Shown here: piece after piece, positions 1,885 to 18,319 of the stretch
Layout: every line of letters starts with the position of its first letter
Position numbering within the stretch: the first letter of the stretch is position 1
Source: Candidatus Omnitrophota bacterium
GTDB taxonomy: Bacteria > Omnitrophota > Gorgyraeia > Gygaellales > Profunditerraquicolaceae
NCBI GenBank assembly: GCA_903852325.1
Contig: CAINQO010000045.1
Coordinates: forward strand, 1-63,784
DNA length: 63,784 nucleotides
Direction of reading: 5' to 3'
Notes under the pieces: generated by a model
Told to the model about the DNA's origin: nothing
Databases searched by the model: none
What the model saw: only the letters and a program-made list of their open reading frames with translations
Made by a program: the position numbers and the translations under genes

Positions 1885-2616
1885 ATGGCTGCGGCTAAAA
1901 AAGATAATTTCACCATTTATGTAAAACAGATCGAAGCAATTTCCAAAGTGGCGAATTTGATCACTTCGGGAATGTACCTGGAGGAGTTGTTGCGCCTGGT
2001 GGTGCAGGTTACCGCGGAGATCATGAATTCGAAAATTTCCTCTTTAATGCTGCTTGACCCGGATAAAAAAGAATTAGTGGTCAAGGCGACCCAATCGATA
2101 TCCGAAGCATATAACGGCAAACCGAATATTCATCTGGGGGAAGGGATCGCCGGGGTAGTCGCGCAGACCAATAAGCCGATCTGCGTTTTGGATGTAAAAG
2201 CCGACACGCGTTATTTAAATCAGGATGTGGCTAAAAAAGAAGGTTTGTGTTCCCTGGCCTGCGTTCCGTTGGCCGTAAAAGGGAGGGTGATCGGAGTTTT
2301 GAACTGCTATACTTCCAAAAAACATAAATTTTCCAAACACGAGCTGGACCTTTTGACGGCTTTGGCCAACCAGGCGGCCCTGGCAATCGAGAACGCGGAG
2401 CTTGACCTGCGCGCCCGTTCCGCGGAAGAGGCCTTGACGACCCGTAAGCTTATCGAGCGGGCAAAAGATATCCTCTCCCTGGACGCCGGCATCCCTTCTT
2501 CGGAGGCTTACCGCTTGATCCAGAAACAAAGCATGGATATGCGTAAATCCATGCGCGAAGTAGCCGAAGCGATTATCCTGGCAAAAGATATCCGAAGCAA
2601 GAAAAATGAAAAATAA
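1885..2616 (+). CDS. GAF-ANTAR protein (RNA-binding transcription antitermination regulator)
   Basis: N-terminal GAF (GEGIAGVVAQTNKP, RVIGVLNCY) and C-terminal ANTAR (RKLIERAKDILSLDAGIPSSEAYRLIQKQSMDMRKSMREVAEAII). The 3' end overlaps the nadE start. Confidence 0.85.
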   Translation: MAAAKKDNFTIYVKQIEAISKVANLITSGMYLEELLRLVVQVTAEIMNSKISSLMLLDPDKKELVVKATQSISEAYNGKPNIHLGEGIAGVVAQTNKPICVLDVKADTRYLNQDVAKKEGLCSLACVPLAVKGRVIGVLNCYTSKKHKFSKHELDLLTALANQAALAIENAELDLRARSAEEALTTRKLIERAKDILSLDAGIPSSEAYRLIQKQSMDMRKSMREVAEAIILAKDIRSKKNEK

Positions 2617-4294: not shown

Positions 4295-4306
4295 AATATA
4301 ATTTAA

Positions 4307-4336
4307 GTTACCAACTCTAGTTCTTTTTTACTTGTA
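4307..4336 (+). promoter_or_regulatory. bipartite box GTTACCA-N16-ACTTGTA, copy A (promoter-like)
   Basis: GTTACCA 4307-4313 and ACTTGTA 4330-4336 with exactly 16 nt between. The N16 ends in a T-run and the upstream flank is AT-rich (AATTTAA). Same box at 11468, 13597 and 15411. Confidence 0.5.
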
Positions 4337-4348
4337 TTGGTGTAAGGC

Positions 4349-4378
4349 TCGCAGAGAAGCGAAAAAAACATTGGCGTT
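4349..4378 (+). promoter_or_regulatory. leader RNA hexaloop hairpin pair (ANTAR-substrate-like), copy A
   Basis: P1 is TCGC-AGAGAA-GCGA (4349-4362). P2 is AAC-ATTGGC-GTT (4367-4378). The P2 loop and 3' arm (GGCGTT) form the 5' arm of the following terminator. Confidence 0.45.
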
Positions 4379-4407
4379 CCAAGATAAGGAACGCCATTTT
4401 TATTTTT
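4373..4407 (+). terminator. intrinsic terminator / attenuator in the leader of the APC-PII operon
   Basis: GGCGTTCC (4373-4380) pairs with GGAACGCC (4388-4395); 7-nt loop, then ATTTTTATTTTT. Confidence 0.75.
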
Positions 4408-4420
4408 AAACAGTTATCCT

Positions 4421-4440
4421 AGACGCAGGCGTCTTTTTTT
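4421..4440 (+). terminator. second terminator-like hairpin in the same leader
   Basis: AGACG-CAGG-CGTCT (or AGAC-GCAGGC-GTCT with a hexaloop) followed by a T-run. Confidence 0.55.
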
Positions 4441-4484
4441 GATCCTATGACGGAGAAAAAAAGGCGCTTTTTTATTTTATTAAC

Positions 4485-4495
4485 CAAATGTGTAA
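4485..4495 (+). promoter_or_regulatory. CAAATGTGTAA half-site shared with the amtB upstream regions
   Basis: 10/11 identical to CAATTGTGTAA at 13752-13762; lies about 25 nt upstream of ATG 4520. Confidence 0.3.
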
Positions 4496-4519
4496 TTAGT
4501 TAAAAGAAGGAGGGCAAAG

Positions 4520-6373
4520 ATGGCTCAAGGGGATATGACTTTGGTTAAGCCTAAGCTCGGTTTATTAGGCGCCACGATGAACGCAATGGCTTTGATTGCT
4601 CCGGGAGCGTTTTTGTGGATTACTTATCAGTTGCAGGCTGCGGCTACCGCGCCAAGCGGGGCTTCGGTTGCCAGCGACATTTGGGCAGGGATCGTGCTGG
4701 CCTTGACCGTATGTTTTTTAACCGCACTCTCCTATGCGCAGTTGGCAAAAATCTATCCGGAAGCAGGTTTTGCCAGCTGTACTTATTTCGCCGAAAAAGC
4801 CTTTTTGGATGCGCGTAAGGAGAAAGTAAGCGGCCCGACCTCGATAGCGCGTTTTGCGAAACTGGCTACCGGATGGGCGGCGCATCTTTTTTATTGGGTT
4901 TATCCGGGAGTAATGGTGGCGATGATGGCCACCCTGATCGGATATATTTATAACCAGTTTACCGGCCAAACCCTGCCGCTATTAAACATGACTGTTATCT
5001 GCGTAATATTTACGGTAGTGACCGGTTATGTCGCCTACCGGGGCGTAACCGGATCAACGGTTATTGCTATCTGGATCAATATTATTCAATGGGTTACTTT
5101 GGTGATCTTTACGGGCTTGGCGATCTGGTACCGCCTGGCTAATCCCCAGCATGCCACGCAGTGGGTATTTAGCGGAGGATTGGATATAATTAAACCGCAC
5201 TCCTTGCAGGGTATCCTGGTCCAGTCGACGATAGCGATTTTAATTCTCGTGGGTTTTGAAAGCTGCACGGCTTTGGCCGCCGAAACCAAAGATCCCAAAA
5301 CCACCATTCCCAAGGCGATCATTATTTCACTTATTGTTCAGGGGGTGTTTGCTTATCTGTTCCAGTATTTTGGTGCCGGATTGATGCTTAGTGAAAAGCT
5401 GGCTAATGCCGCAGGGGCAACCGGCATGGCTGCCGCCGCCGCTTCGGGGGCTCCCATCGGTGACTTGGCTAAACTTATCGGGGAATCTTTAATTCCCGGC
5501 CTGGGATTCGGTTTAATGATTACTATGGCCATTACCGTGGCGATCGCGGTGATCGGAACAACCTTAAGCTGTATGAATACGGCGATGCGGGTATCTGCCG
5601 GCATGGCGGAAGACCGGGAGCTGCCTTCCGCATTAAGCTTTATTCATCTAAAACATATTACGCCGCATGTTTCACTGGCAATGTTGATCCTGGTTACTTC
5701 GGTAATCGGAGCTATCGGCGTGCGTTCAGTAGTAGGGCTTTTTGGCATTACCCTTGCCTCAAACCTGGGGACTTTTATACTCTACGGGCTTACCTGCATC
5801 TGGACGATCGTTGCTTTTAAAAATAGGGAGGATTTTAATCTTTTAAAGCACGGGATTATCCCCGTGCTGGGGCTGATCGCCAATGTGGTGATGACCGCTG
5901 GGATCCTTTATTTATATATTATCGGCAATGCCGATGCCAAGGCGGAAGCCACGATCTGTTTTACTATCGCCGGAGGCTGGGCCTTGATCAGCGTTATCTA
6001 TGTTGCGGTAACTACCGTGCGTAAAACTTACCGCTTAAAGATGGTTTCCGGGATGATCCGTCCGGAGCAGCTCAACATAGTCGTGCAGGCGCTGAAAGAA
6101 GATGATTGTATTTTAGGGATGACGGTGACAAAAGTTAAAGGATTCGGCCGGCAAAAAGGTCACCTTGACGGTGAGCCGCAGAACGATATAATCAGTTTTA
6201 TACCGAAAATAAGGCTGGATGTCGTAGTTAAGGAGTGGGATGTCCCGCAGATAATGGATATTATCGCCGAAGCGGCGCGCACCGGCAATGTCGGTGACGG
6301 CAAGATCTTCGTGACCGATGCCTCGGAAGCGATGCGCATCCGCACCGGAGAAAAAGGGATTTGGGCGGTATAA
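4520..6373 (+). CDS. APC-superfamily permease with in-frame C-terminal PII (GlnB-like) domain
   Basis: 617 aa. About 500 aa form a multi-TM APC-type permease. The last ~105 aa carry the PII hallmarks GFGRQKG (T-loop base) and TGNVGDGKIFV (B-loop). AAGGAGGG RBS upstream. Confidence 0.85.
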   Translation: MAQGDMTLVKPKLGLLGATMNAMALIAPGAFLWITYQLQAAATAPSGASVASDIWAGIVLALTVCFLTALSYAQLAKIYPEAGFASCTYFAEKAFLDARKEKVSGPTSIARFAKLATGWAAHLFYWVYPGVMVAMMATLIGYIYNQFTGQTLPLLNMTVICVIFTVVTGYVAYRGVTGSTVIAIWINIIQWVTLVIFTGLAIWYRLANPQHATQWVFSGGLDIIKPHSLQGILVQSTIAILILVGFESCTALAAETKDPKTTIPKAIIISLIVQGVFAYLFQYFGAGLMLSEKLANAAGATGMAAAAASGAPIGDLAKLIGESLIPGLGFGLMITMAITVAIAVIGTTLSCMNTAMRVSAGMAEDRELPSALSFIHLKHITPHVSLAMLILVTSVIGAIGVRSVVGLFGITLASNLGTFILYGLTCIWTIVAFKNREDFNLLKHGIIPVLGLIANVVMTAGILYLYIIGNADAKAEATICFTIAGGWALISVIYVAVTTVRKTYRLKMVSGMIRPEQLNIVVQALKEDDCILGMTVTKVKGFGRQKGHLDGEPQNDIISFIPKIRLDVVVKEWDVPQIMDIIAEAARTGNVGDGKIFVTDASEAMRIRTGEKGIWAV

Positions 6374-6386
6374 ACAGGCAGGTGAA

Positions 6387-6710
6387 ATGATGAAAAAGAT
6401 AGAATGCATTATCCGTTCGGAAAAACTGAAAAACCTGACCGATTCGCTCCTGGGGGTAGGGATCGGGGGGATGACCGTGAGTGAAGTGCGCGGTTTCGGG
6501 ATGCAGAGTACGCGGCCGGAGAGTTTCCTGTTTGTGCATAAAACTAAAATCGAGATTTATGCCCTTGATGATCAGGTAAACGAAATCCTGGCGGTAATTT
6601 TAAAAGAATGTTTTTCCGGAAAAGCCGGTGACGGCAAAATTGCCGTGATCCCGCTGGATAACTGTATCCGTATCCGCACCAAAGAGAAGATGGACAAAGC
6701 CATTATTTAA
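6387..6710 (+). CDS. divergent PII-like signal transduction protein (short T-loop)
   Basis: MMKKIECIIRSEKL... with GFGMQST in place of GFGRQKG; B-loop SGKAGDGKIAV retained. The track ORF start at 6318 overlaps the upstream gene, so ATG 6387/6390 is preferred. Confidence 0.75.
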   Translation: MMKKIECIIRSEKLKNLTDSLLGVGIGGMTVSEVRGFGMQSTRPESFLFVHKTKIEIYALDDQVNEILAVILKECFSGKAGDGKIAVIPLDNCIRIRTKEKMDKAII

Positions 6711-6727
6711 ACGGAAGGAGAAAAACG

Positions 6728-8032
6728 ATGGAAAAGTTTTATAGAAGGTCTAAAGATATCGTAAGCAGCGGTATGGTAATAATGCTTTTGGGGCTGTGTT
6801 TTCTCGGGACAAATATTGCTTCTGTTTGGGCAGATGATCCTAGTGCGGCGGCGGCTGTTCCCGCGCCCGCGCCTACCTCTTCTCTCGGGCTGTTAATGAG
6901 CATGTTGGATAAGGCAGGGTTGGCTAAGCCTTTAAGCAATGCCGGGATCAACCTTTACGGTTACGTCCAGGCGGGTTTCTTCCATGACTTCACCCGTCCT
7001 CAAAAAGGGGGAGCAACATTTATGGGGTACAACAGCTTTAAAAATAGTGGCGTTCTTGACAAAGTGAGTTTGAACATTGAACGTACCGTTGATCCCACGA
7101 AAAAACAATTTGATTTGGGTTTCCGCCTGGAAGGGATTTATGGCTCGGATGCCGCTTTTGTCCACTCCAACGGGATGTGGGCTAAACAGACGGGTCATAC
7201 TCAAAGCGATCTTATCCAGGCCTATGTGGATATCGCCATTCCTAACCTGCCGGCAAAGATCCGGGTAGGTAAATGGATCGAGTTAGCCGGTTTTGAGCAG
7301 TTCGATGCCAACATTTACGGCGCTTTCGGCGATCCGTCCAGGGCATTGTATTCCTATAGCTACCAGTTTCTCTTTGCCGAACCGGTTACGCAGTCCGGTG
7401 CTTTTGCTACCTATGTATTTAGCCCGCAATTGACGATTGACGCGGGGATGACCCGCGGATGGAACCAGTCGACGCGGGATTCTAACGGCACCTCAGACTT
7501 CCTGGGCCGCCTGATCTTTACCCCCAATGACAAGACCACGGTTATTTTTGTAATGACGGAGGGGCCGGAATACCCGATTCTCGTAGGAAACAATGTCCCC
7601 GCCGGTGACAATAAAGATTGGTGGACCGCTTTGGACCTGGTTGTTACGCAGAAAATTAACGATAAGTTAAGGTTTGGCTTGGGCATGGATTACGTGCGGG
7701 CCCAGAAGATTCCCGGTTTAGAAGAAGGGGCTAAACAATGGGGCGGCGTGGCGGGTTATGCCAGCTACGCGTTTAATCCGTATTTAACGCTAAATAGCAG
7801 GTTGGAATGGTATCAGGATGCTGCCGGCGGTTTCTCAACCGGTGCGGCAACCGGAGCCAATTATTATGCTTCTACGGTAGGGGTGGCGATTAAACCGTTC
7901 CCGAATAATAAGTTTTTATCTAACTTGCTGTTCCGTCCTGAAGTGCGCTACGACTATTCTAATAAACCGGTTTTTAACAGCAACGAGCACAACCAGTGGA
8001 CATTCAGTATGGATACCATTTTTACCTTTTAG
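6728..8032 (+). CDS. outer-membrane beta-barrel porin (family uncertain)
   Basis: 434 aa; signal peptide (LLGLCFLGTNIASVWA), alternating beta-strand pattern, C-terminal ...TIFTF aromatic terminus. Confidence 0.7.
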   Translation: MEKFYRRSKDIVSSGMVIMLLGLCFLGTNIASVWADDPSAAAAVPAPAPTSSLGLLMSMLDKAGLAKPLSNAGINLYGYVQAGFFHDFTRPQKGGATFMGYNSFKNSGVLDKVSLNIERTVDPTKKQFDLGFRLEGIYGSDAAFVHSNGMWAKQTGHTQSDLIQAYVDIAIPNLPAKIRVGKWIELAGFEQFDANIYGAFGDPSRALYSYSYQFLFAEPVTQSGAFATYVFSPQLTIDAGMTRGWNQSTRDSNGTSDFLGRLIFTPNDKTTVIFVMTEGPEYPILVGNNVPAGDNKDWWTALDLVVTQKINDKLRFGLGMDYVRAQKIPGLEEGAKQWGGVAGYASYAFNPYLTLNSRLEWYQDAAGGFSTGAATGANYYASTVGVAIKPFPNNKFLSNLLFRPEVRYDYSNKPVFNSNEHNQWTFSMDTIFTF

Positions 8033-8090
8033 CATGAGCTAACCGATCGGCCGTAATTTAATAAGTACATATTTTAAGAGGGAGGATGCT

Positions 8091-8429
8091 ATGAAAAAGA
8101 TCGAAGCGATAATTCGTCCCGCAAAAGTGGGGGATGTTTGCGCGGCTTTAGCGAAAATTTGTAGTCCGGGGATTATGATCACCGAAATCGAAGGCCACGG
8201 AAGGCAATGCGGAATAAAGCAGGAGTTCCGCGGAAAAACCTACAAAACGGAACTGCTTAGTAAGGCTAAGCTGGAAATTATTGTAAATGATGGAGATCTG
8301 GATAAAACCGTTAAAGCGATCCGCGAAGCCGCCTTTACGGGAAAGGTGGGGGATGGCAAGATTTTTATTTATCCGGTAGACAATGCCATAAGGATCAGCA
8401 CAGATGAAAAAGGGGAGGCGGCAGTGTAG
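8091..8429 (+). CDS. PII family nitrogen regulatory protein (third paralog of the cluster)
   Basis: 112 aa; GHGRQCG T-loop base, TGKVGDGKIFIYP B-loop; GGGAGG RBS. Confidence 0.85.
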   Translation: MKKIEAIIRPAKVGDVCAALAKICSPGIMITEIEGHGRQCGIKQEFRGKTYKTELLSKAKLEIIVNDGDLDKTVKAIREAAFTGKVGDGKIFIYPVDNAIRISTDEKGEAAV

Positions 8430-8462
8430 CGCCGGGGCTGCCCGGCAGAAGAGCTTTTGAGC

Positions 8463-8490
8463 TTGACAGGGGTATTTTTTGTGCTATATT
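8463..8490 (+). promoter_or_regulatory. sigma70-type promoter of a long structured leader
   Basis: TTGACA (8463-8468), 16-nt spacer, TGc-TATATT (8485-8490, extended -10). Confidence 0.6.
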
Positions 8491-8496
8491 TTCTTG

Positions 8497-8689
8497 ATTA
8501 AGCTCAATCCCTTTTCGGGCGGTATTGACACCTGAGAAGAGCGAAAAGCCAGGTTTTCGATTTTTAATAGTCTCGGGGTGGATATCCGGAAATTTAGATT
8601 AGGTGTTATTCAACCTGAGCCCAACAACCGACCTCTTGAGAGCACGGTTCAAGAGGGGATCACCAGAGGACGTACACTCTGGTTTTTTA
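8497..8689 (+). promoter_or_regulatory. ~190-nt structured leader ending in a terminator; candidate riboswitch (possibly ydaO-type c-di-AMP class)
   Basis: Several hairpins plus a terminator sit directly upstream of a KimA-like transporter. GGGGTGGATATCC (8575-8587) and GAGCCCAACAACCGAC (8617-8632) loosely resemble conserved ydaO segments as I recall them. Confidence 0.35.
8662..8689 (+). terminator. intrinsic terminator closing the leader
   Basis: ACCAGAG-8 nt loop-CTCTGGT followed by TTTTTTAT. Confidence 0.75.
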
Positions 8690-8738
8690 TTGCAAAAAAG
8701 AATGCGCCCGTTCTTTGATTAATGCGGGACGCAGGGAG

Positions 8739-10718
8739 ATGATCGTGGAACAAGTACCTTGGTATACAAAAATAAAAAATCTGGTTATGGGCGGCCCGCG
8801 GAATGTTCAGGACCAGCACATTTTTCATAATTTATCCCTGATCGCTTTTTTTGCCTGGGTGGGGCTGGGCGCGGACGGCTTATCCTCCTCCTGTTATGGA
8901 CCCCAGGAAGCATTTCTGGCGTTAAACGGGCACACCTACCTGAGTATATTCGTCGCCATCGGCACCGTATTGACCATCTTTATTATCTGTTCCAGTTATT
9001 CGCAGATCGTTGAACTTTTCCCTCACGGAGGAGGCGGATATTTGGTGGCCAGTAAGCTGCTTTCTCCGACCCTGGGGATGGTTTCCGGCTGCGCCCTGCT
9101 GATCGATTACGTATTAACGATTACGGTTTCAGTGGCCAGCGGGGCTGATGCCATCTTCAGCTTTCTGCCTCCAGAGTGGCTGGGCTACAGGCTTAGTTTT
9201 GCGATTTTTATCGTGTTGATCCTTATTTATTTAAACATGCGAGGGGTAAAGGAATCGGTTGTCCCTTTGATGCCGATTTTTCTTATCTTTGTGGTGACCC
9301 ATGTTTTTATCATTATTTATGCGATCGCCAAACACGCTTCCAATATGCCGGCCCTGGCCGTTTCTACGGTGAGGGATACTCAGGCTACCCTTTCCCAGGT
9401 GGGTTTTTTCGGTTTATTATTTCTGGTCTTGCGCGCTTACAGTATGGGCGCCGGTACTTTTACCGGGATCGAGGCGGTAAGTAACGGGGTGCCGATTTTA
9501 AGGGAGCCCAGGGTGCAGACGGCAAAAAAGACCATGCACTACATGGCCTGGTCCCTGTCTTTTGTTGTCTTAGGGTTGATGGTGGCCTATTTACTTTTCC
9601 AGATCACTCCGGTTGAAGGCAAGACGCTTAACGCCATACTTTTTGAGTCGGCTACCTCAAACTGGGGCTGGGGGAAGATTTTTGTATTGGTCGCTTTATT
9701 TTCCGAAGGGATGCTGCTTTTTGTCGCCGCGCAAACCGGGTTTTTAGACGGCCCCCGGGTATTGGCGAATATGGCTGCCGACCGCTGGTTTCCCACCCGG
9801 TTTGCCAGCTTAAGCGACCGTCTGGTGATCAAAAAAGGGATATTGATCATGGGCGGCCTGGCTGCTTTACTCATGATCCTTACTCACGCCTCGGTAAAAT
9901 TCCTAGTCGTCCTTTACAGTATTAACGTATTTATTACTTTTGTCCTTTCTCAGAGCGGGATGGTACGCCACTGGTGGAATTACCGTAAAAAAGCCAAAGA
10001 ATGGATAAGAAAGATACTGATCAATGGTGTCGGGTTAATTTTAAGCTTTTTTATCCTGATTTCGATGGTGATCATGAAGTTTACTGAAGGTGGATGGATT
10101 ACCCTGTTCATTACCTCTATACTGGCTGTTTTAGCTATCCTGACGAAAAGGCATTACTATGAAATCTCCAAGCAGCTGCGCCGGCTCAACAGCCTGGTCA
10201 GGAGCGTGGAATTCCAGGAAGGTATCGCCAGCGGCGCTACCAGCGTTCCTCCGTATGATCCTAAATCTAAGACTGCGGTTTTAATGGTCAATGGTTTTAA
10301 CGGGGTGGGGCTGCATACGCTTTTTGGGGTAATCCGGCTGTTCGGAGGGGTATTTAAGAATTTTATTTTTCTGGAAGTGGGGATGGTGGATGCGGGGAAC
10401 TTTAAAGGCGTCACCGAAATGGAAGGCTTAAAGACCCAGGTGGATACGGATTTAAAACGCTACGTGAGTTTTATGAACCAGCAGGGTTATTTTGCCAAAG
10501 GGGTATCGGTGATCGGGGTAGATGTGGTCGATCAGGTGGCCCAGATCACTCCCCAGATCGTCGCAGAGTTCCCGAATGCGGTGTTTTTCGGCGGCCAGCT
10601 CTTATTTACCAAGGATTCCCTGTTTGCGCCGTTGTTCCATAACTACGCGGTATTCTCGATCCAGAAAAAACTGTACAGGCAGGGTGTCCCTTTTGTGATT
10701 TTGCCGATCAGGATTTAA
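8739..10718 (+). CDS. APC-superfamily transporter with cytoplasmic C-terminal domain, KimA (K+/H+ symporter)-like
   Basis: About 660 aa; N-terminal GADGLSSSCYGPQEAF motif typical of this APC subfamily, about 12 TM segments, ~200 aa soluble tail. The start is uncertain (ATG 8739, GTG 8745; the track gives 8715). Confidence 0.7.
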   Translation: MIVEQVPWYTKIKNLVMGGPRNVQDQHIFHNLSLIAFFAWVGLGADGLSSSCYGPQEAFLALNGHTYLSIFVAIGTVLTIFIICSSYSQIVELFPHGGGGYLVASKLLSPTLGMVSGCALLIDYVLTITVSVASGADAIFSFLPPEWLGYRLSFAIFIVLILIYLNMRGVKESVVPLMPIFLIFVVTHVFIIIYAIAKHASNMPALAVSTVRDTQATLSQVGFFGLLFLVLRAYSMGAGTFTGIEAVSNGVPILREPRVQTAKKTMHYMAWSLSFVVLGLMVAYLLFQITPVEGKTLNAILFESATSNWGWGKIFVLVALFSEGMLLFVAAQTGFLDGPRVLANMAADRWFPTRFASLSDRLVIKKGILIMGGLAALLMILTHASVKFLVVLYSINVFITFVLSQSGMVRHWWNYRKKAKEWIRKILINGVGLILSFFILISMVIMKFTEGGWITLFITSILAVLAILTKRHYYEISKQLRRLNSLVRSVEFQEGIASGATSVPPYDPKSKTAVLMVNGFNGVGLHTLFGVIRLFGGVFKNFIFLEVGMVDAGNFKGVTEMEGLKTQVDTDLKRYVSFMNQQGYFAKGVSVIGVDVVDQVAQITPQIVAEFPNAVFFGGQLLFTKDSLFAPLFHNYAVFSIQKKLYRQGVPFVILPIRI

Positions 10719-10751
10719 GTTAAAGAATAGAATTCATAACCATAAATCCTA

Positions 10752-10779
10752 TTGACAAATCCTTAAAATGTGGTAATCT
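10752..10779 (+). promoter_or_regulatory. sigma70-type promoter of the sigma-factor leader
   Basis: TTGACA (10752-10757), 16-nt spacer, TGg-TAATCT (10774-10779). Confidence 0.6.
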
Positions 10780-10787
10780 TTAAGTAA

Positions 10788-10818
10788 TACAGCGTTGTAG
10801 CAAAGACAGTGAAGTCTT
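10788..10818 (+). promoter_or_regulatory. dual hexaloop hairpins (ANTAR-substrate-like), sigma leader module 1
   Basis: P1 is TAC-AGCGTT-GTA (10788-10799) and P2 is AAGAC-AGTGAA-GTCTT (10803-10818). Both loops have A at position 1 and G at position 4. The P2 3' arm is part of the terminator 5' arm. Confidence 0.55.
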
Positions 10819-10851
10819 CTGGCAGTAATATCGCCCAGAAGGCTTTTTTTT
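10813..10851 (+). terminator. intrinsic terminator / attenuator 1 upstream of the sigma factor gene
   Basis: AGTCTTCTGG pairs with CCAGAAGGCT (one G-U pair), 12-nt loop, T8 run. Confidence 0.8.
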
Positions 10852-10886
10852 CGCCAAAATTGGCGAAGTTCCGGACTAAGGCGTCC
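10852..10886 (+). promoter_or_regulatory. hexaloop hairpin pair, sigma leader module 2
   Basis: CGCC-AAAATT-GGCG (10852-10865) and GGAC-TAAGGC-GTCC (10873-10886). The latter overlaps the next terminator stem. Confidence 0.4.
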
Positions 10887-10928
10887 TTTATCCAAAGAAG
10901 TAAACACGGGTAAAGGATTTTTTATTTT
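10884..10928 (+). terminator. terminator-like hairpin 2 upstream of the sigma factor gene
   Basis: TCCTTTA pairs with TAAAGGA, 20-nt loop, TTTTTTATTTT. Confidence 0.5.
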
Positions 10929-10943
10929 AAGGGGACTATAAAC

Positions 10944-11468
10944 ATGAGTTTTGAAGAGTTACACCAAAAATTATCGCCGACCATTAAAAGGATCGCCTAC
11001 CGGCTAAACGGGCATTACCGGTCTTTTAGCCATGAAGACCTTTACCAGGAGGCAACTATCCATCTTTGGAGTAATTTCTGTAAAGGTGTCCTTAGCGATA
11101 AGACCGACAGTTATATCCTCCAGGGTTGTTATTTCCACCTGAAAAACTATATCCGCAAGGTAAATGAGCGCTCCAATGTGATCAGTATTGACGCGACATT
11201 AAGCGCGCATGAAGATTCTACCGTTGAGGATGTCCTGGGCCAGTATTGGGCTTGTGATGATTGCCGGAGCCAACTGCACGATAAATTTTTAGTGCAAAGC
11301 ATCAGGAATAACGGTTTTGATCCGAAAGAAAAAAGGCTGCTGGATTATTTCAGCCAGGGGTTAACCACCAGGGATATCGGCAAGCGTATGGGGATATCCC
11401 ATGTCAGCGTAGTGAAGCTGATGCAAAAGGTCAGGGTCAAGGCCCGCAAGCATCTGGATAAAATTTAG
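10944..11468 (+). CDS. sigma-70 family (ECF-like, regions 2 and 4 only) RNA polymerase sigma factor
   Basis: 174 aa; region 2 (EDLYQEATIHLWSNF) and region 4 HTH (LTTRDIGKRMGISHVSVVKLMQKVRVKARKHL); no adjacent anti-sigma gene. Confidence 0.8.
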   Translation: MSFEELHQKLSPTIKRIAYRLNGHYRSFSHEDLYQEATIHLWSNFCKGVLSDKTDSYILQGCYFHLKNYIRKVNERSNVISIDATLSAHEDSTVEDVLGQYWACDDCRSQLHDKFLVQSIRNNGFDPKEKRLLDYFSQGLTTRDIGKRMGISHVSVVKLMQKVRVKARKHLDKI

Positions 11469-11497
11469 TTACCAGATCCGGGTATTTTTTACTTGTA
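11468..11497 (+). promoter_or_regulatory. bipartite box GTTACCA-N16-ACTTGTA, copy B
   Basis: GTTACCA 11468-11474 (its G is the last base of the sigma gene stop codon) and ACTTGTA 11491-11497. Confidence 0.5.
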
Positions 11498-11534
11498 CTC
11501 TTGTAATAATCTAAGTCCCCTTTAAAAAGGGCAG

Positions 11535-11568
11535 ACACAGTGATGTGTAAGATGTAAACATAGGCGTT
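11535..11568 (+). promoter_or_regulatory. leader RNA hexaloop hairpin pair, copy B
   Basis: P1 is ACAC-AGTGAT-GTGT (11535-11548) and P2 is AAC-ATAGGC-GTT (11557-11568). P2 overlaps the terminator 5' arm. Confidence 0.45.
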
Positions 11569-11595
11569 CTAGAGATAGAGCGCCTTTTTATTTTT
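11562..11595 (+). terminator. intrinsic terminator / attenuator, leader B
   Basis: AGGCGTTCT pairs with AGAGCGCCT (one G-U pair), hexaloop AGAGAT, then TTTTATTTTT. Confidence 0.8.
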
Positions 11596-11630
11596 CCCGG
11601 ACCCAGCGGGTTTTATGAAGGCGGTATCTG

Positions 11631-11807
11631 ATGATTGACGGAAAACTGATCGATAAATTGAGCCAATTAAAGGAAGCCAGGGGATATACTTTATATGATT
11701 TATCCAGAAAGCTGGATATTCAGGTCACGACCATTGAGCGCTGGTTTAAGACCAAACGCATCAATAAGGTTTACGCGCAGCTGGTTAGGGATAAGTTAAG
11801 TATTTAA
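11631..11807 (+). CDS. small XRE-like HTH protein (58 aa), below the ORF-track length cutoff
   Basis: Hand translation gives MIDGKLIDKLSQLKEARGYTLYDLSRKLDIQVTTIERWFKTKRINKVYAQLVRDKLSI. The YTLYDLSRKLDIQVTTIERW stretch looks like a helix-turn-helix. The RBS is weak. Confidence 0.45.
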   Translation: MIDGKLIDKLSQLKEARGYTLYDLSRKLDIQVTTIERWFKTKRINKVYAQLVRDKLSI

Positions 11808-11842
11808 AGCGATTAACGGGGAAAGGTCTTTTTGTTTAATTT

Positions 11843-11853
11843 TTACACAATTG
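11843..11853 (+). promoter_or_regulatory. TTACACAATTG half-site upstream of amtB copy 1
   Basis: Identical to the left arm of the 13735-13762 palindrome; the right arm is degenerate here. Confidence 0.3.
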
Positions 11854-11897
11854 GATAACCAAGAGTCAAGTTAAGTACTCATTTAAAGGAGGGAGAA

Positions 11898-13124
11898 ATG
11901 AATTCAGGGGATACAGCTTGGGTGTTAATCTCATCGGCACTGGTATTGCTGATGACTCCGGGTTTGGCCTTTTTTTACGGCGGGATGGTCAGGCGGAAAA
12001 ATGTGTTGAGTGTTTTGATGCAGTGCTTCATTATTATGTGCGTTTTGAGCATCCAGTGGGTTCTGATCGGATACAGCTTATCTTTTCACCCGGGAAACGG
12101 ATTCTGGGGAGGATTGAAATGGATGGGATTGAACGGGGTAGGCTTAGAGCCTTACGCGGATTATGCCGGAACGATCCCGCACCAGGCATTCATGGCCTTT
12201 CAGATGATGTTCGCCATTATCACTCCGGCGTTGATCATCGGGGCGTTTGCCGAAAGAATGAAATTTTCCGCATTTTTAATTTTTACCCTGCTCTGGGCGA
12301 CTTTTGTTTATGATCCTTTGTGCCACTGGGTTTGGGGAATGGGCGGCTGGTTAAGGAACCTGGGGGCTTTGGATTTTGCCGGGGGCACGGTCGTGCATAT
12401 TAACGCCGGGATCGCCGCTTTGGTTACGGCGATAGTTTTAGGAAAACGCGCTAACCTGGATAAGAACATCCCTACTCCGCACAATATGCCTTTTGTGGTG
12501 TTAGGGACCGGTTTATTGTGGTTTGGCTGGTTCGGTTTTAATGCCGGAAGCGCTTTGGCCGCTAACGGATTGGCGGTAAATGCTTTTGTGGTAACCAATA
12601 CCGCCGCGGCCGCCGCCGGTTTAAGCTGGGCGTTGATCGAGTGGATGCGTAACGGCAAACCGACGATCTTCGGGGTTTGTTCCGGGGCGGTAGCCGGCCT
12701 GGTGGCGATCACTCCTGCCGCCGGATACGTGAATGTAGTTTCGGCGCTCATTATCGGTTTTTTAGTCAGCATGATCTGTTTTATCGCGGTTACCGTAATC
12801 AAGCCTTTATTCGGTTATGATGATTCCCTGGATGCTTTCGGCGTGCACTGTGTCGGAGGGATGTGGGGGGCTTTGGCTACCGGGCTGTTTGCTTCCAAGC
12901 TGGTCAACCCGGCAGGAAGCGACGGTTTATTTTTCGGCAATCCTAAACAGTTCCTGGTCCAGCTGGCCGCGGTTTTAGTTACCGTAGCTTATACCAGCGT
13001 AGTCACTTTTATAATTTATAAGCTGGTAGACGTTTTTGTCGGAGTAAGGGTGGATGAAAAAACAGAAGCGATGGGCTTGGATCTTACTCAGCATCGCGAG
13101 AGAGCATATACCGTACTAGAGTAA
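11898..13124 (+). CDS. amtB: ammonium transporter (Amt family), copy 1
   Basis: 408 aa; Amt signatures (FFYGGMVRRKN, DFAGGTVVHINAG, LDAFGVHCVGG); GGAGGGAG RBS. Confidence 0.95.
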   Translation: MNSGDTAWVLISSALVLLMTPGLAFFYGGMVRRKNVLSVLMQCFIIMCVLSIQWVLIGYSLSFHPGNGFWGGLKWMGLNGVGLEPYADYAGTIPHQAFMAFQMMFAIITPALIIGAFAERMKFSAFLIFTLLWATFVYDPLCHWVWGMGGWLRNLGALDFAGGTVVHINAGIAALVTAIVLGKRANLDKNIPTPHNMPFVVLGTGLLWFGWFGFNAGSALAANGLAVNAFVVTNTAAAAAGLSWALIEWMRNGKPTIFGVCSGAVAGLVAITPAAGYVNVVSALIIGFLVSMICFIAVTVIKPLFGYDDSLDAFGVHCVGGMWGALATGLFASKLVNPAGSDGLFFGNPKQFLVQLAAVLVTVAYTSVVTFIIYKLVDVFVGVRVDEKTEAMGLDLTQHRERAYTVLE

Positions 13125-13178
13125 AAGGCAGGCAGCAGTTAGCCGCGAGTAGGTAGGAAAATTTAAGTGGAGGATAAG

Positions 13179-13520
13179 ATGAAATTAGTAATCGCGATTA
13201 TTCAGCCTTATAAGCTTGAAGAAGTTAAAGAAGAGCTGTATAAAGTGGATGTCAATTTGATCACGGTCAGCGAAGTCCTGGGGCATGGCCGGCAAAAAGG
13301 GGTGACGGAGGTATACCGAGGTTCTAAAGAAACCGGCAACCTTCTGCGTAAGGTGCGCCTGGAGATCGCGGTGAACGATAATTTCCTGGAGCCGACGATC
13401 AAGGCGATCGTTAAGGGGGCTAAAACCGGGGAAACCGGGGACGGAAAGATCTTTGTCCTGGATTTAAAAGAGTGCATCCGCATCCGGACGGAGGAGCAGG
13501 GAAGCCAGGCGATCGGATAG
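13179..13520 (+). CDS. glnK: PII nitrogen regulatory protein GlnK, copy 1
   Basis: 113 aa; GHGRQKG T-loop base, [12 protein letters not shown]-loop; follows amtB. GGAGG at 13169-13173 favours ATG 13179. Confidence 0.93.
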
Positions 13521-13596
13521 ATAAAAGATCCTTCGTCTGTAGATAAAAGATTATTGTGGACTCAGGATAAATTTTGCTTCGCAAAATTTAATTTAA

Positions 13597-13626
13597 GTTA
13601 CCAGAGTCGGTGTTTTTTTACTTGTA
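13597..13626 (+). promoter_or_regulatory. bipartite box GTTACCA-N16-ACTTGTA, copy C
   Basis: GTTACCA 13597-13603, ACTTGTA 13620-13626; the AATTTAA upstream flank matches copy A. Confidence 0.5.
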
Positions 13627-13665
13627 TGATTAATGTAAGCACGGGGTAGTGTTTTACATTAATCA
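13627..13665 (+). promoter_or_regulatory. 12-bp perfect hairpin in leader C
   Basis: TGATTAATGTAA (13627-13638) pairs with TTACATTAATCA (13654-13665), 15-nt loop. Confidence 0.6.
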
Positions 13666-13679
13666 AAGCGCAATGACGG

Positions 13680-13721
13680 CGCCGATATGGTTATTTAAAG
13701 TAACCGTAAAGGCGTTTTTTT
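13680..13721 (+). terminator. intrinsic terminator / attenuator, leader C
   Basis: CGCCGATATGGTTA pairs with TAACCGTAAAGGCG (imperfect), then T7. It is preceded by GCGC-AATGACG-GCGC (13668-13682), which competes for its 5' arm. Confidence 0.65.
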
Positions 13722-13734
13722 ATTTATCCTAATT

Positions 13735-13762
13735 TTACACAATTGAATAGTCAATTGTGTAA
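13735..13762 (+). promoter_or_regulatory. perfect 11-bp inverted repeat (candidate operator or hairpin) upstream of amtB copy 2
   Basis: TTACACAATTG-aatagt-CAATTGTGTAA, ending 19 nt before ATG 13781. Confidence 0.5.
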
Positions 13763-13780
13763 CGCACAAAGGGGAGGAAG

Positions 13781-15007
13781 ATGATTAATCAGGCGGATAC
13801 GTTATTTGTTTTGCTGTCGGCGGCGTTTGTGATGTTAATGACCCCGGGACTTGCTTTTTTCTACGGCGGCATGGTGCGGCGCAAAAATATCTTAAGCGTT
13901 TTAATGCAGTGTTTTGTGGCTTTATGTTTATTGTCTTTGCAGTGGATCCTTTTCGGCTACAGCCTTTCTTTTGCCCCCGGCAGCGGATTCTGGGGCGGCT
14001 TGAGCTGGTTTGGTTTAAACGGCGTGGGGACAGCTCCTTACGCGGGTTATTCTGCGACTATCCCGCATGAGGCGTTTATGGTTTTTCAGATGATGTTTGC
14101 CGTAATTACCCCGGCTTTAATTATCGGAGCGTTTGCCGAAAGAATGAAATTCTCGGCTTTTTTGGTTTTCACTCTGCTCTGGGCGACTTTTGTTTATGAT
14201 CCTTTGTGCCACTGGGTCTGGGGTGAAGGCGGCTGGTTAAGGAATCTGGGAGTGATGGATTTTGCCGGGGGGATCGTGGTGCACACCAGCGCCGGGGTCG
14301 CCGCTTTAGTGACGACCATTGTCATCGGCAAAAGAAAAAACTTGGAACATACCCCTTCCCCGCATAACCTGCCCTTCGTCGTTTTAGGCACCGCGCTTTT
14401 ATGGTTTGGCTGGTACGGGTTTAATGCCGGAAGCGCTCTGGCGGTTAATGGGATCGCCGTGAATGCTTTTGTGGTTACGAACACCGCCGCGGCCGCCGCC
14501 GGGTTAAGCTGGGCTTTATTGGAATGGATCCGTAACGGTAAACCGACAGTCTTCGGGATAGTTACCGGTTCGATTGCCGGTTTGGCTACGGTAACCCCGG
14601 CATCAGGGTTTGTCAGCCCGATTTCGGCGATCATTATCGGGATTGCCGCAAGCATCGTCTGTTTTATCGCGGTGGCGGTGACCAAACCGCGGTTCGGTTA
14701 TGATGATTCCCTGGACGCTTTCGGAGTGCACGGGGTCGGGGGCATATTGGGTACGCTCTTAACCGGGGTATTGGCTTCTAAGGTGATTAATCCGGCCGGA
14801 GCTAACGGATTATTCTATGGTAATCCTAAGCAGCTGTTGATACAATTGATCGGAGTGGCGGTTGCCGCCGGCTATACTTTCCTGGCCACCTTTGCTATTT
14901 ATAAGCTGGTGGATATTTTCTTTAGAATGCGCGTCAGCGAGAAGGATGAGCTGGTAGGGCTTGACCTCACCCAACACAGGGAAAGAGCGTATACTATCTT
15001 AGAGTAA
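13781..15007 (+). CDS. amtB: ammonium transporter (Amt family), copy 2
   Basis: 408 aa; colinear with copy 1; GGGGAGG RBS. Confidence 0.95.
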   Translation: MINQADTLFVLLSAAFVMLMTPGLAFFYGGMVRRKNILSVLMQCFVALCLLSLQWILFGYSLSFAPGSGFWGGLSWFGLNGVGTAPYAGYSATIPHEAFMVFQMMFAVITPALIIGAFAERMKFSAFLVFTLLWATFVYDPLCHWVWGEGGWLRNLGVMDFAGGIVVHTSAGVAALVTTIVIGKRKNLEHTPSPHNLPFVVLGTALLWFGWYGFNAGSALAVNGIAVNAFVVTNTAAAAAGLSWALLEWIRNGKPTVFGIVTGSIAGLATVTPASGFVSPISAIIIGIAASIVCFIAVAVTKPRFGYDDSLDAFGVHGVGGILGTLLTGVLASKVINPAGANGLFYGNPKQLLIQLIGVAVAAGYTFLATFAIYKLVDIFFRMRVSEKDELVGLDLTQHRERAYTILE

Positions 15008-15062
15008 GAGTAGTTAGTGGGTAGCAGAGAGCGTGTAGGAAAATCTAAAAGCGGAGGACAAG

Positions 15063-15404
15063 ATGAAGCTGGTTATCGCGATCATTCAGCCGTATAAATT
15101 AGAAGAAGTTAAAGAAGAATTGTATAAAGCGGAGATCAACCTGCTGACGGTCAGCGAAGTCCTGGGACATGGCCGGCAAAAAGGGGTAACGGAAGTTTAC
15201 CGCGGGGCCAGGGAAACCGGAAACCTGCTGCGCAAGATCCGTCTGGAGATCGCGGTGAACGATAATTTCCTGGAACCGACGATCAAAGCGATCGTTAAGG
15301 GGGCTAAAACGGGTGAGACCGGGGACGGAAAGATCTTTGTCCTGGATTTAAAAGAGTGCATCCGCATCCGGACGGAGGAGCGCGGAAGCCCGGCGATCGG
15401 CTAA
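15063..15404 (+). CDS. glnK: PII nitrogen regulatory protein GlnK, copy 2
   Basis: 113 aa; near-identical to copy 1, with Ala49 where copy 1 has Ser49. Confidence 0.93.
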
Positions 15405-15410
15405 AATCAG

Positions 15411-15440
15411 GTTACCAGAACCCCCGTTTCTTTACTTGTA
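15411..15440 (+). promoter_or_regulatory. bipartite box GTTACCA-N16-ACTTGTA, copy D
   Basis: GTTACCA 15411-15417, ACTTGTA 15434-15440. Confidence 0.5.
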
Positions 15441-15448
15441 ATTAAGAG

Positions 15449-15464
15449 AGAACTGAGGCGTTCT
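15449..15464 (+). promoter_or_regulatory. hexaloop hairpin competing with terminator, leader D
   Basis: AGAAC-TGAGGC-GTTCT; the loop and 3' arm form the 5' arm of terminator D. Confidence 0.4.
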
Positions 15465-15491
15465 GGATTTTAAAGAATGCCTCTTTTAATT
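15455..15491 (+). terminator. intrinsic terminator / attenuator upstream of glnA
   Basis: GAGGCGTTCT pairs with AGAATGCCTC (one G-U pair), 9-nt loop, then TTTTAATT (short T-run). Confidence 0.6.
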
Positions 15492-15549
15492 ATCGGGGTT
15501 TATGGTAAGATAGGTAATCATTTTTTAAGACCATATCACGGAGGAGAAA

Positions 15550-17745: not shown

Positions 17746-17753
17746 TGTAAAAT

Positions 17754-17805
17754 GGGGCCAGATTTATTTTTCAATAGCTAACTGCTGGAAAATAAATCTG
17801 ACCCC
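17754..17805 (+). terminator. long hairpin after glnA (weak terminator)
   Basis: 17-nt arms GGGGCCAGATTTATTTT and AAAATAAATCTGACCCC (one mismatch); no strong T-run follows. Confidence 0.4.
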
Positions 17806-17819
17806 ATTTAAAAGTTAAG

Positions 17820-17865
17820 AGCACAACGTAGTGCTTTAAAGATAAAAGTTGAACAGGGGCGTTCA
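17820..17865 (+). promoter_or_regulatory. dual hexaloop hairpins (ANTAR-substrate-like) upstream of the fis-like gene and gltBD
   Basis: P1 is AGCAC-AACGTA-GTGCT (17820-17835) and P2 is TGAAC-AGGGGC-GTTCA (17850-17865). Both loops have A1 and G4. P2 overlaps the terminator 5' arm. Confidence 0.55.
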
Positions 17866-17908
17866 CTTTGGCAAATATATTTTTTGCCATTGTGAGCGTC
17901 ATTTTTTT
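17858..17908 (+). terminator. intrinsic terminator / attenuator upstream of the fis-like gene and gltBD
   Basis: GGCGTTCACTTTGGC (17858-17872) pairs with GCCATTGTGAGCGTC (17886-17900): 13 of 15 positions pair, with a 2x2 internal loop. ATTTTTTTAA follows. Confidence 0.7.
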
Positions 17909-17938
17909 AAACAGCGGTGCATAAAAATTGAGCAAATC

Positions 17939-18319
17939 ATGCTGACGATCCTCATTACCGAGAACGAAACTGAAATTAAGGAAGCGCTGGCCAGGATCTT
18001 AAAACAGGAGGGGTATGCTTTATCCTCCGATAGCCAGGGGGAGGTGATCCGCCTGGTAAAAAAAGACTGCATCCGCGACCTGGCTTTCATTAAAGATAAA
18101 GCCATCGAATTAGAAAATTCTTTGTTTCTTGAAAAAAAAGGTGTATTATATAAATCCGTTTTAGAAGCAGTGGAAAAACCCCTACTGGAACAGACACTGG
18201 AGCGCTGCGAAGGCAACCAGCTTAAAGCCGCCAGGATTTTGGGGATAAACCGCAACACCATGCGCGCCAAGATAAATAAATTGGGGATCGACGTATCGAA
18301 ATGGAAAACAAATTCATGA
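17939..18319 (+). CDS. small Fis-type HTH protein with degenerate receiver-like N-terminus (NtrC remnant-like)
   Basis: C-terminal HTH_8 (GNQLKAARILGINRNTMRAKINKLGI). The N-terminus ILITENETEIKEALARILKQEGY resembles REC beta1-alpha1 without the acidic pocket. ATG 17939 lies downstream of the leader terminator. Confidence 0.7.
   Translation: MLTILITENETEIKEALARILKQEGYALSSDSQGEVIRLVKKDCIRDLAFIKDKAIELENSLFLEKKGVLYKSVLEAVEKPLLEQTLERCEGNQLKAARILGINRNTMRAKINKLGIDVSKWKTNS

Follow-up and report, generated by a model that had tools for sequence, protein, structure and literature searches.

In this 63,784-nt stretch of DNA from a Candidatus Omnitrophota bacterium (contig CAINQO010000045.1, hereafter the window), the bipartite sequence GTTACCA-N16-ACTTGTA (the box) was found upstream of four nitrogen operons, among which a gene for a small sigma-70-family protein is located. 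Judging from sequence comparisons, the box is most likely a promoter read by the sigma factor encoded beside it. The best explanation of the data, in which considerable confidence may be placed, is that the box would serve as a core promoter for RNA polymerase carrying this sigma factor (10944-11468), within a circuit that would also include a GAF-ANTAR protein. An exact-pattern search of the 63.8-kb window revealed four copies, all on the plus strand: 4307..4336 (box A, 12 nt past the nadE stop codon), 11468..11497 (box B), 13597..13626 (box C) and 15411..15440 (box D, 6 nt past the glnK2 stop codon). No copy was present in 100 dinucleotide-preserving shuffles of the window, and when up to three mismatches were allowed, only one extra match was obtained (53672), which is the chance level. 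The preliminary description of this DNA, which had reported four plus-strand copies with a fixed 16-nt spacer and no others, was therefore borne out. Alignment of the four regions gave an A/T-rich flank, (A/G)GTTACCA(G/A), a free spacer with a T-rich 3' end and ACTTGTA; all four copies have the two features described earlier, a T-run closing the spacer on its 3' side and an A/T-rich flank upstream.

Domain annotation agreed with the earlier assignment of the downstream genes to an APC-PII cluster, two amtB-glnK pairs and glnA. Box A is the predicted promoter of the genes for an APC permease-PII fusion, PII, a BBP2 porin and another PII, and box B is that of a small helix-turn-helix (HTH) gene, amtB1 and glnK1; the HTH gene (58 amino acids) comes first and amtB second. 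Box C is predicted to be the promoter of amtB2-glnK2, and box D the nitrogen-regulated promoter of glnA, which encodes a type III glutamine synthetase.

The distribution of the box was studied in a related set of 80 loci encoding homologues of the sigma factor (1.09 Mb, each locus at most 20 kb). These were mostly from Omnitrophota, with some from Syntrophorhabdales and 'delta proteobacterium' metagenome-assembled genomes (MAGs) and one from an Elusimicrobia MAG. The related loci contained 120 exact boxes versus approximately 0.008 expected; all 120 were on the strand of the sigma gene and none on the opposite strand. The spacer was 16 nt long in 120 of 120 exact boxes, and none were found with spacers of 12-15 or 17-20 nt. 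In an unbiased count of 7-mers in the 165 nt past the sigma stop codon, ACTTGTA ranked first (64 of 77 loci) and GTTACCA second (59 of 77). The box started 0-150 nt from the sigma stop codon in about 64 of 79 loci. Typically, the first box began at the last base of that codon, and in the window the TAG codon (11466-11468) and box B have their G in common, an overlap that had already been pointed out. Further boxes preceded amtB-glnK, type III and type I glutamine synthetase genes, Fis-HTH/gltB, PII genes and APC-PII, and others stood before genes for BBP2 or Gcw_chp/TorF-like porins and a 267-amino-acid outer-membrane beta-barrel protein. A bias in gene function was thus evident in these sigma-encoding loci, where boxes precede nitrogen genes.

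The few orthologous sites that were not exact differed by one or two bases, always within the upstream 7-mer. In GC-rich Syntrophorhabdales loci, the spacer and the T-run turned GC-rich, and both 7-mers and their spacing were unchanged. As negative controls, the regions within 450 nt upstream of 75 sigma genes, 35 nadE genes and 36 glnK genes were inspected, and none contained a box. The same count for amtB was confounded by operon structure because many amtB genes come after a porin or HTH gene; the 450-nt count was used for negative controls only.

A scan with the bare pattern covered 185,579 GTDB species genomes and gave at least 120 matches, of which those listed were analyzed as a sample. 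Most of the listed matches were chance occurrences in Bacteroidota, Lactobacillaceae, archaea and other groups, located inside genes and without the T-run. Approximately 27 of those listed carried the A-rich flank and the T-run, and all of them came from Omnitrophota, MAGs labelled Planctomycetales or Planctomycetia, Syntrophaceae/Syntrophorhabdus or Elusimicrobia. These listed matches preceded genes for AmtB, glutamine synthetase, porins, PII, APC-PII and Fis-HTH/GltB, as well as for hybrid-cluster protein, a class I amidotransferase (GATase) and an Rrf2 regulator. The sigma gene was present within the 8-kb stretch in 15 of the T-run loci listed versus none of the chance loci listed. Thus, with the motif as the sole starting point, box and sigma family still coincided in taxonomic range and neighbourhood among the matches listed.

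As a core promoter, the box would have GTTACCA as its -35 element and ACTTGTA as its -10 element, with an A-rich UP-like flank upstream and T-rich sequence at the proximal end of the spacer, and transcription would start approximately 6-8 nt past ACTTGTA. The 7-mers are 23 bp apart from centre to centre, as -35 and -10 hexamers are when their spacer is 17 nt long. A spacer that is fixed in length and free in sequence points to protein-DNA recognition, typical of one helix face. In leaders of the glnA class, the hairpin GAAC-NNNGGC-GTTC begins 7 nt past the box in most related loci and 10-11 nt past box D in the window. No separate promoter fits between, so the box either is the core promoter or lies inside the transcript.

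The box differed from the known promoter classes that were considered. The promoters at 110, 8463, 10752, 25521, 43873 and 58945, which the preliminary description had set apart from it, all conform to TTGACn-N16-18-TAnnnT. A sigma-70 promoter scan placed no site at the boxes; TTACCA matches the -35 consensus at four of six positions, and CTTGTA matches TATAAT at one of six. The sigma-54 pattern TGGCAC-N5-TTGC, with up to two mismatches, gave 40 matches versus 51.5 expected, none of them in the relevant intergenic regions. Sequences just behind the box that might conceal a sigma-70 -10 element (TAATGT, TATATA) were rejected, being unconserved between leader classes and having their -35 partner in the variable spacer.

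It had been suggested earlier that the box could be either a promoter or a transcription-factor site with rigid geometry. The first possibility held up, and the second became less likely because there was no symmetry, no room for a downstream core promoter and no suitably placed sigma-70 -10 element. If the box were an operator, it would be bound by a conventional regulator acting on a housekeeping-sigma promoter, and the 58-amino-acid XRE-type HTH protein (11631-11807) or the Fis-type HTH protein would be the candidates; both HTH genes are conserved members of the regulon, and some dimeric regulators also show rigid spacing. However, the two 7-mers do not repeat each other in inverted or direct orientation (GTTACCA has TGGTAAC as its reverse complement, not ACTTGTA), and no dyad symmetry of the GlnR/TnrA type (TGTNA-N7-TNACA) or NtcA type (GTA-N8-TAC) was conserved in the site profile. 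Both the distance between the 7-mers and the A-rich sequence upstream fit -35/-10 geometry, a TATAAT-like element is not conserved at any distance at which it could be used, and the glnA leader hairpin begins too close to the box, as described above. In addition, the sigma-70 promoters of the same genomes are near-consensus, and many box-bearing loci are without the HTH genes. An operator function is therefore considered improbable.

The box could also act at the RNA level in read-through transcripts, as a processing site, a 3'-end signal or a part of the ANTAR leader, since boxes often stand directly past a stop codon with no terminator between and the spacer ends in a T-run. When the four window copies were folded as RNA, no common structure and no consistent hairpin were found, and the fold energy was no better than that of shuffled sequences (z from -1.7 to +0.4). 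The length of the free spacer is fixed to the nucleotide, and GC-rich genomes lose the T-run and keep both 7-mers. Moreover, ANTAR leaders occur without the box: those of the sigma gene and of glnA at locus L066 are located behind sigma-70 promoters, and the window gltB leader also has no box. At L066, an extended -10 sigma-70 promoter takes the place of the box before the same ANTAR leader of glnA. The box is thus separate from the RNA element, a promoter module that can be exchanged for another, and a function as RNA appears very unlikely. The spacer with its T-run was also considered as a terminator of the upstream gene and was rejected because there was no consistent hairpin.

The gene at 10944..11468 (plus strand) encodes a sigma-70-family factor of 174 amino acids with the hallmark motif DKTDSYILQGCYFHLKNYIRK. 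The presence of sigma-2 and sigma-4 domains and the lack of an adjacent anti-sigma gene, both stated in the preliminary description, were confirmed. More than 900 close homologues were found, essentially all in Candidatus Omnitrophota MAGs and named no further than 'sigma-70 family'; when the search was started from a Syntrophorhabdales-type homologue, more than 1,200 clusters were obtained, and their names were equally generic. The NCBIfam model TIGR02937 covers residues 3-171 (46.4 bits versus a cut-off of 42.9), and the protein fits none of the NCBIfam subfamilies. Its match to Pfam Sigma70_r2 (E = 5.6e-5) was marginally below the curated cut-off, the motif DLxQEAxxHLW is present in the sigma-2 domain, and residues 127-169 gave a weak Pfam match to a GerE/sigma-4-type HTH. 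Profile matches were obtained to region 4 of FliA, SigB and WhiG. Sequence searches of the PDB returned only FliA and SigB, and since these matches were weak, no subfamily could be assigned.

The AlphaFold (AF2) model of the protein is all-helical with a confidence score (pLDDT) of 76. The top 50 Foldseek matches in the PDB were nearly all sigma factors, with few exceptions (for example, a WhiA entry), and the best were SigB, sigma-28 and the extracytoplasmic function (ECF) factors SigL, SigH, SigE and SigW. Residues 77-120, approximately 45 amino acids with short helices modelled at low confidence (pLDDT 51-62), may form a linker or be what is left of a sigma-3 domain. By sequence, the protein appears to sit between groups 3 and 4, its nearest PDB sequence relatives being of group 3 (FliA, SigB). 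The sigma-2 and sigma-4 features place it in the sigma-70 family, and core binding and promoter-specific initiation are predicted.

A profile search of 1.84 billion representative proteins yielded 124 clusters (50% identity) at E <= 1e-30 and 282 at E <= 1e-10. The region 2.3/2.4 hallmark SY(I/L)LQGC(Y/F)FHLKNY(I/L)R was present in nearly all (about 100 clusters at 50% identity). Among 79 genomic homologues sharing 41-100% identity, region 2.3/2.4 and the HTH of region 4.2 were almost invariant, and the remainder drifts. The invariant DNA-reading regions of the protein mirror the invariant box, GC-rich genomes included.

A distant sub-clade of the sigma family, with 30-37% identity to the window protein, was found in Elusimicrobia MAGs and in a few MAGs labelled Deltaproteobacteria or Clostridia. 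It carries the motif SYILQ(S/G)CWFH and the region 4.2 helix ISFVRV(H/S)K or VSHVMV(H/Y)K. All eight sub-clade loci have a neighbourhood of nadE, amtB-glnK, glutamine synthetase and gltB genes, with GAF-ANTAR in some, and their box stands directly after the sigma gene or after sigma and nadE. In seven of the eight, this box was GTTAACA-N16-ACTTGTA, and in one the upstream 7-mer was GGTAACA; the GTTAACA variant was never seen in core-clade loci. A change in regions 2.4 and 4.2 together with a change in the upstream 7-mer is the pattern expected if sigma-4 reads that 7-mer. This co-variation is supportive of a link between sigma factor and box, short of being conclusive.

The co-variation also bears on the possibility that the box is the promoter for a different alternative sigma factor encoded elsewhere and that the neighbouring sigma factor reads another motif. 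In its favour, an autoregulatory link is missing, as no box stands upstream of the sigma gene, and the genomes inspected were partial. However, the close placement of the box behind the sigma gene in about 64 of 79 loci, the unusual taxonomic range that the two share and the joint change of sigma sub-clade and box variant all speak against this possibility, and no second conserved bipartite motif was seen in the related loci. It is therefore regarded as quite unlikely.

Several points weigh against recognition of the box by the neighbouring sigma factor. Without its own upstream box, the sigma gene is missing the usual signature of ECF autoregulation, and to our knowledge ACTTGTA resembles no described -10 element. 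The XRE-like 58-amino-acid protein and the Fis-type HTH protein, both conserved in the regulon, are possible readers of the box. Nitrogen operons without the box exist, namely gltB in the window and several glnA genes elsewhere. Finally, the co-variation amounts to essentially one evolutionary split, not many independent events.

The leaders that follow the boxes share the features of ANTAR targets. The consensus of their P1 hairpin is (A/G)CAC-[A/G]nnG[A/T]n-GTG(T/C), and that of P2 is AAC-AnnGGC-GTT, whose 3' half GGCGTTC is the 5' arm of an intrinsic terminator. The P1-P2 linker is approximately 8-14 nt and longer in the gltB and glutamine synthetase classes, and a second unit, AGAC-GCAGGC-GTCT, with its own terminator is often present. 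In 34 aligned leaders, P1 was 100% paired with compensatory AU/GC exchanges, P2 was 95% paired, and the terminator was 96% paired with compensatory changes at four pairs; every one of the slid controls collapsed, and the terminators were also found independently of the alignment. At least one A1/G4 hexaloop hairpin was present in 85% of leaders versus 23% of random windows. Some leaders, of the glnA class, have a single hairpin, and some loops start with G. Rfam searches of the whole window at the gathering threshold and of 4000-18500 at E <= 1 produced no relevant match; the leaders correspond to no curated RNA family. The earlier statement that each box lies 40-100 nt upstream of a leader terminator is valid when the distance is taken from the box start and fails when it is taken from the box end (approximately 15 nt for box D).

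In the window, the GAF-ANTAR protein, which is predicted to act on all these leaders as an RNA-binding antiterminator, is encoded at 1885..2616 (plus strand; Pfam PF03861, E = 5e-17). Across phyla, the majority of related loci have its gene as the direct upstream neighbour of the sigma gene. Between the two, a near-consensus promoter, cTTGACA-N17-TAtAcT, and a leader were found, in which AGAC-AnnGAA-GTCT and GGAC-TnAGGC-GTCC overlap terminators. The window sigma gene has a canonical sigma-70 promoter at 10752..10779 (plus strand; TTGACA-N16-TAATCT with TG at the extended -10 position) and a leader at 10780..10943 (plus strand; fold z = -3.5). Two ANTAR-like attenuators had been noticed in this leader, and they correspond to two hexaloop hairpins on the plus strand, AGAC-AGTGAA-GTCT at 10804-10817, which overlaps terminator 1, and GGAC-TAAGGC-GTCC at 10873-10886, which overlaps terminator 2. 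Thus, the sigma gene appears to be under sigma-70 initiation and ANTAR antitermination, not box autoregulation. The GAF domain of the ANTAR protein scores against the N-terminal GAF domain of NifA, and in Azotobacter the NifA GAF domain binds 2-oxoglutarate.

The cascade outlined in the preliminary description, from ANTAR to the sigma factor to the box operons, has comparative support for each element and may operate as follows. Under nitrogen limitation, the GAF-ANTAR protein would bind the hexaloop hairpins in the nascent sigma mRNA leader; the signal could be 2-oxoglutarate or PII status, because its GAF domain resembles that of NifA. The sigma mRNA would be initiated at the ordinary sigma-70 promoter, and ANTAR binding would override the two leader terminators, so that the sigma factor is made. 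It would then drive the boxes before the APC-PII/porin operon, both amtB-glnK operons and glnA, and in other genomes it would also serve gltB, PII, other porins, type I glutamine synthetase and hcp. Each box transcript would again need ANTAR read-through; with both the sigma factor and active ANTAR protein needed, the circuit would be a coherent feed-forward AND gate. Basal expression of glnA would be provided by the extended -10 element TGgTAAGAT. In this scheme, we infer the recognition of the box by the sigma factor, the start site, the signal sensed and the direction of regulation from sequence comparisons.

The leaders of the window operons, all on the plus strand, were as follows. Leader A (4337..4519, fold z = -4.6) contains P1 TCGC-AGAGAA-GCGA (4349-4362), P2 AAC-ATTGGC-GTT (4367-4378), which overlaps the terminator at 4372-4396, and a second unit AGAC-GCAGGC-GTCT (4421-4434) with a second terminator. 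Leader B (11498..11630) has P1 ACAC-AGTGAT-GTGT (11535-11548) and P2 AAC-ATAGGC-GTT (11557-11568), overlapping the terminator at 11562-11585; between it and amtB1 is the gene for the 58-amino-acid HTH protein, which is of the XRE/Cro type. Small genes homologous to it precede amtB in many loci (L010, L058, L072, L160 and others). Leader C (13627..13780, fold z = -5.6) has P1 GCAC-GGGGTA-GTGT (13639-13652) and a hairpin GCGC-AATGACG-GCGC (13668-13682) that overlaps a long terminator with a T-run near 13723 at its end. It also contains the palindrome TACACAATTGA-N4-TCAATTGTGTA (13732-13762) before the ribosome-binding site. This palindrome (TTACACAATTGA-N4-TCAATTGTGTAA), present at 13732-13762 and at about 11843-11870, is placed after the leader terminator and before the ribosome-binding site of amtB, and numerous Omnitrophota loci have kept it upstream of amtB (for example, TTTGCACAATTGGTTAACCAGTTGTGCAAA). 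Its function may be that of an operator, to which the small HTH protein would perhaps bind, or that of an RNA hairpin close to the ribosome-binding site.

Leader D (15441..15549) has one hexaloop hairpin, GAAC-TGAGGC-GTTC (15450-15463), which overlaps the terminator at 15455-15483. Downstream of this glnA attenuator, the extended -10 sigma-70-like element TGgTAAGAT (15503-15511, plus strand) is kept in other genomes as TGnTA(A/G)AAT and is probably a second, basal or constitutive glnA promoter. The gene order after box D is glnA, a Fis-type HTH gene, gltB and gltD. A long terminator hairpin follows glnA, and the ANTAR-type leader of the Fis-HTH/gltB operon comes next (17746-17900 together). 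The leader itself (17815..17900, plus strand) consists of P1 AGCAC-AACGTA-GTGCT, P2 GAAC-AGGGGC-GTTC and a terminator; no box precedes it in the window, and other genomes have a box at that position. Since the mechanical open reading frame start of the Fis-HTH gene (17849, TTG) falls inside this leader, the true start is probably further downstream.

The first gene behind box A (4520-6373) encodes an APC-family amino-acid permease with a PII domain fused to its C-terminus (Pfam P-II, residues 507-611), followed by two stand-alone PII genes (6318-6710 and 8091-8429) and the BBP2 porin gene. This fusion, which suggests built-in gating of uptake by nitrogen status, recurs behind a box in locus L126. 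A strong sigma-70 promoter, TTGACA-N16-TATATT with TG, and then a leader of about 225 nt occupy 8463-8714; the leader ends in a terminator (8662-8683) before the second APC permease gene. This leader matches nothing in Rfam, shows no obvious ANTAR hairpins and may be another attenuator or a riboswitch. The second APC permease gene is followed by the sigma gene and box B.

In loci L001-L064, most Omnitrophota have as the first box-preceded gene after sigma one for a protein of about 267 amino acids (for example, L046, 10642-11442). It has a signal peptide and a C-terminal Phe and no Pfam or NCBIfam match, and it resembles a small outer-membrane beta-barrel. Its place is taken elsewhere by a Gcw_chp/TorF-type porin, and these proteins could be nitrogen-starvation porins for ammonium or urea. 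In locus L082 (Omnitrophica GWA2_41_15 contig), a box at 381 on the minus strand, with an ANTAR-type leader, precedes a Prismane/Hcp gene, which suggests that detoxification of hydroxylamine or nitric oxide belongs to the regulon in some genomes.

The predicted system was compared with known ones. HrpL and the hrp box GGAACC-N15/16-CCACNNA represent an ECF (group 4) sigma factor with its cognate bipartite promoter. ECF factors consist of sigma-2 and sigma-4 domains only, in about 170-200 amino acids. The present system resembles them in having a small protein with sigma-2 and sigma-4 domains, apart from the possible remnant of a sigma-3 domain, two short elements with a fixed spacer of about 16 nt, and a compact coherent regulon with the sigma gene beside its targets. 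Unlike ECF genes, the sigma gene has no adjacent anti-sigma gene; its neighbours are the GAF-ANTAR gene (here an APC permease gene) upstream and a porin gene, HTH gene or amtB downstream. It also has no autoregulatory box upstream (0 of 75) and is preceded by a consensus sigma-70 promoter instead, its predicted promoter is without the ECF-typical AAC (-35) and CGT (-10) cores, and its sequence scores closest to FliA and SigB-type factors. Synthesis of the sigma factor is apparently under RNA antitermination, and the regulon is that of central nitrogen assimilation. Because an anti-sigma partner, autoregulation and the AAC/CGT cores were each looked for and none was found, the protein is not a classical ECF member.

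As with sigma-54/NtrBC in Proteobacteria, a dedicated alternative holoenzyme would serve amtB-glnK, glnA and gltB, and as with the enterobacterial promoters glnAp1 (sigma-70) and glnAp2 (sigma-54), glnA has apparent tandem promoters, the box and the extended -10 element. However, the sigma family is unrelated, the locus contains neither a -24/-12 motif nor an enhancer-binding AAA+ activator, and control is apparently exerted via sigma supply and ANTAR elongation, not open-complex formation.

Nitrogen regulons controlled by ANTAR proteins are known, for example, the GnfK/GnfR cascade of Geobacter (PMC2995071). Ramesh et al. (2012) described the design of ANTAR substrates as hexaloop hairpins, linked the predicted regulons to nitrogen genes and stated that no GAF-ANTAR protein had been characterised at that time (PMC3369931). 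At nasF, NasR antitermination is combined with sigma-54 (PMC12591593). The leaders studied here likewise carry A1/G4 hexaloops, with P2 overlapping the terminator, before amtB, glnK/PII, glnA and gltB, and as at nasF there would be two control layers, a special promoter and an antiterminator. Unlike in the known ANTAR regulons, the sensor here is a GAF domain, not a receiver or NIT domain, a leader also appears to control a sigma gene, and the promoters would be of a new sigma-70-family specificity. In the literature, nothing was found on an ECF or alternative sigma factor tied to amtB or glnA, on Omnitrophota sigma factors or on ANTAR-controlled sigma genes, and the main text of the ECF re-classification paper mentions no ammonium, nitrogen, glutamine or Omnitrophica.

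As an element, the system is of a known kind, pairing an alternative sigma-70-family factor with a bipartite promoter of its own and a compact set of target genes. What appear to be new are a sigma family that has no characterised member and on which no paper was found, its promoter specificity, and a nitrogen-assimilation regulon with an ANTAR riboregulator placed upstream of the sigma factor. Taken together, the comparative data make it reasonably probable that an unrecognised sigma-70-family 'nitrogen sigma' (hallmark SYILQGCYFHLKNY, promoter GTTA(C/A)CA-N16-ACTTGTA) defines a nitrogen-assimilation regulon in Omnitrophota, Elusimicrobiota, Syntrophorhabdia and relatives and functionally replaces sigma-54/NtrC. 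Its synthesis would be gated by the GAF-ANTAR riboregulator in an RNA-to-sigma feed-forward circuit not described before.

The prediction is concrete: it singles out one protein family, gives the exact promoter sequence and its strict spacing, pairs a natural -35 variant with a variant of the sigma factor and delimits the regulon. Experiments in E. coli or in vitro could test it with no need to grow the organisms; the phyla concerned have no, or almost no, cultured genetically tractable members. If it is true, annotators could call nitrogen regulons in these MAGs, and an orthogonal sigma/promoter pair would be available for synthetic biology. It would also be an example of sigma supply set by an RNA-binding antiterminator instead of an anti-sigma factor. 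In other Gram-negative bacteria, nitrogen assimilation is the territory of sigma-54/NtrC, and the paradigms of global nitrogen control are sigma-54/NtrC, NtcA, GlnR/TnrA, AmtR, NrpR and ANTAR attenuation. A sigma-70-family factor for amtB, glnK, glnA and gltB would, if true, be a new paradigm of nitrogen control.

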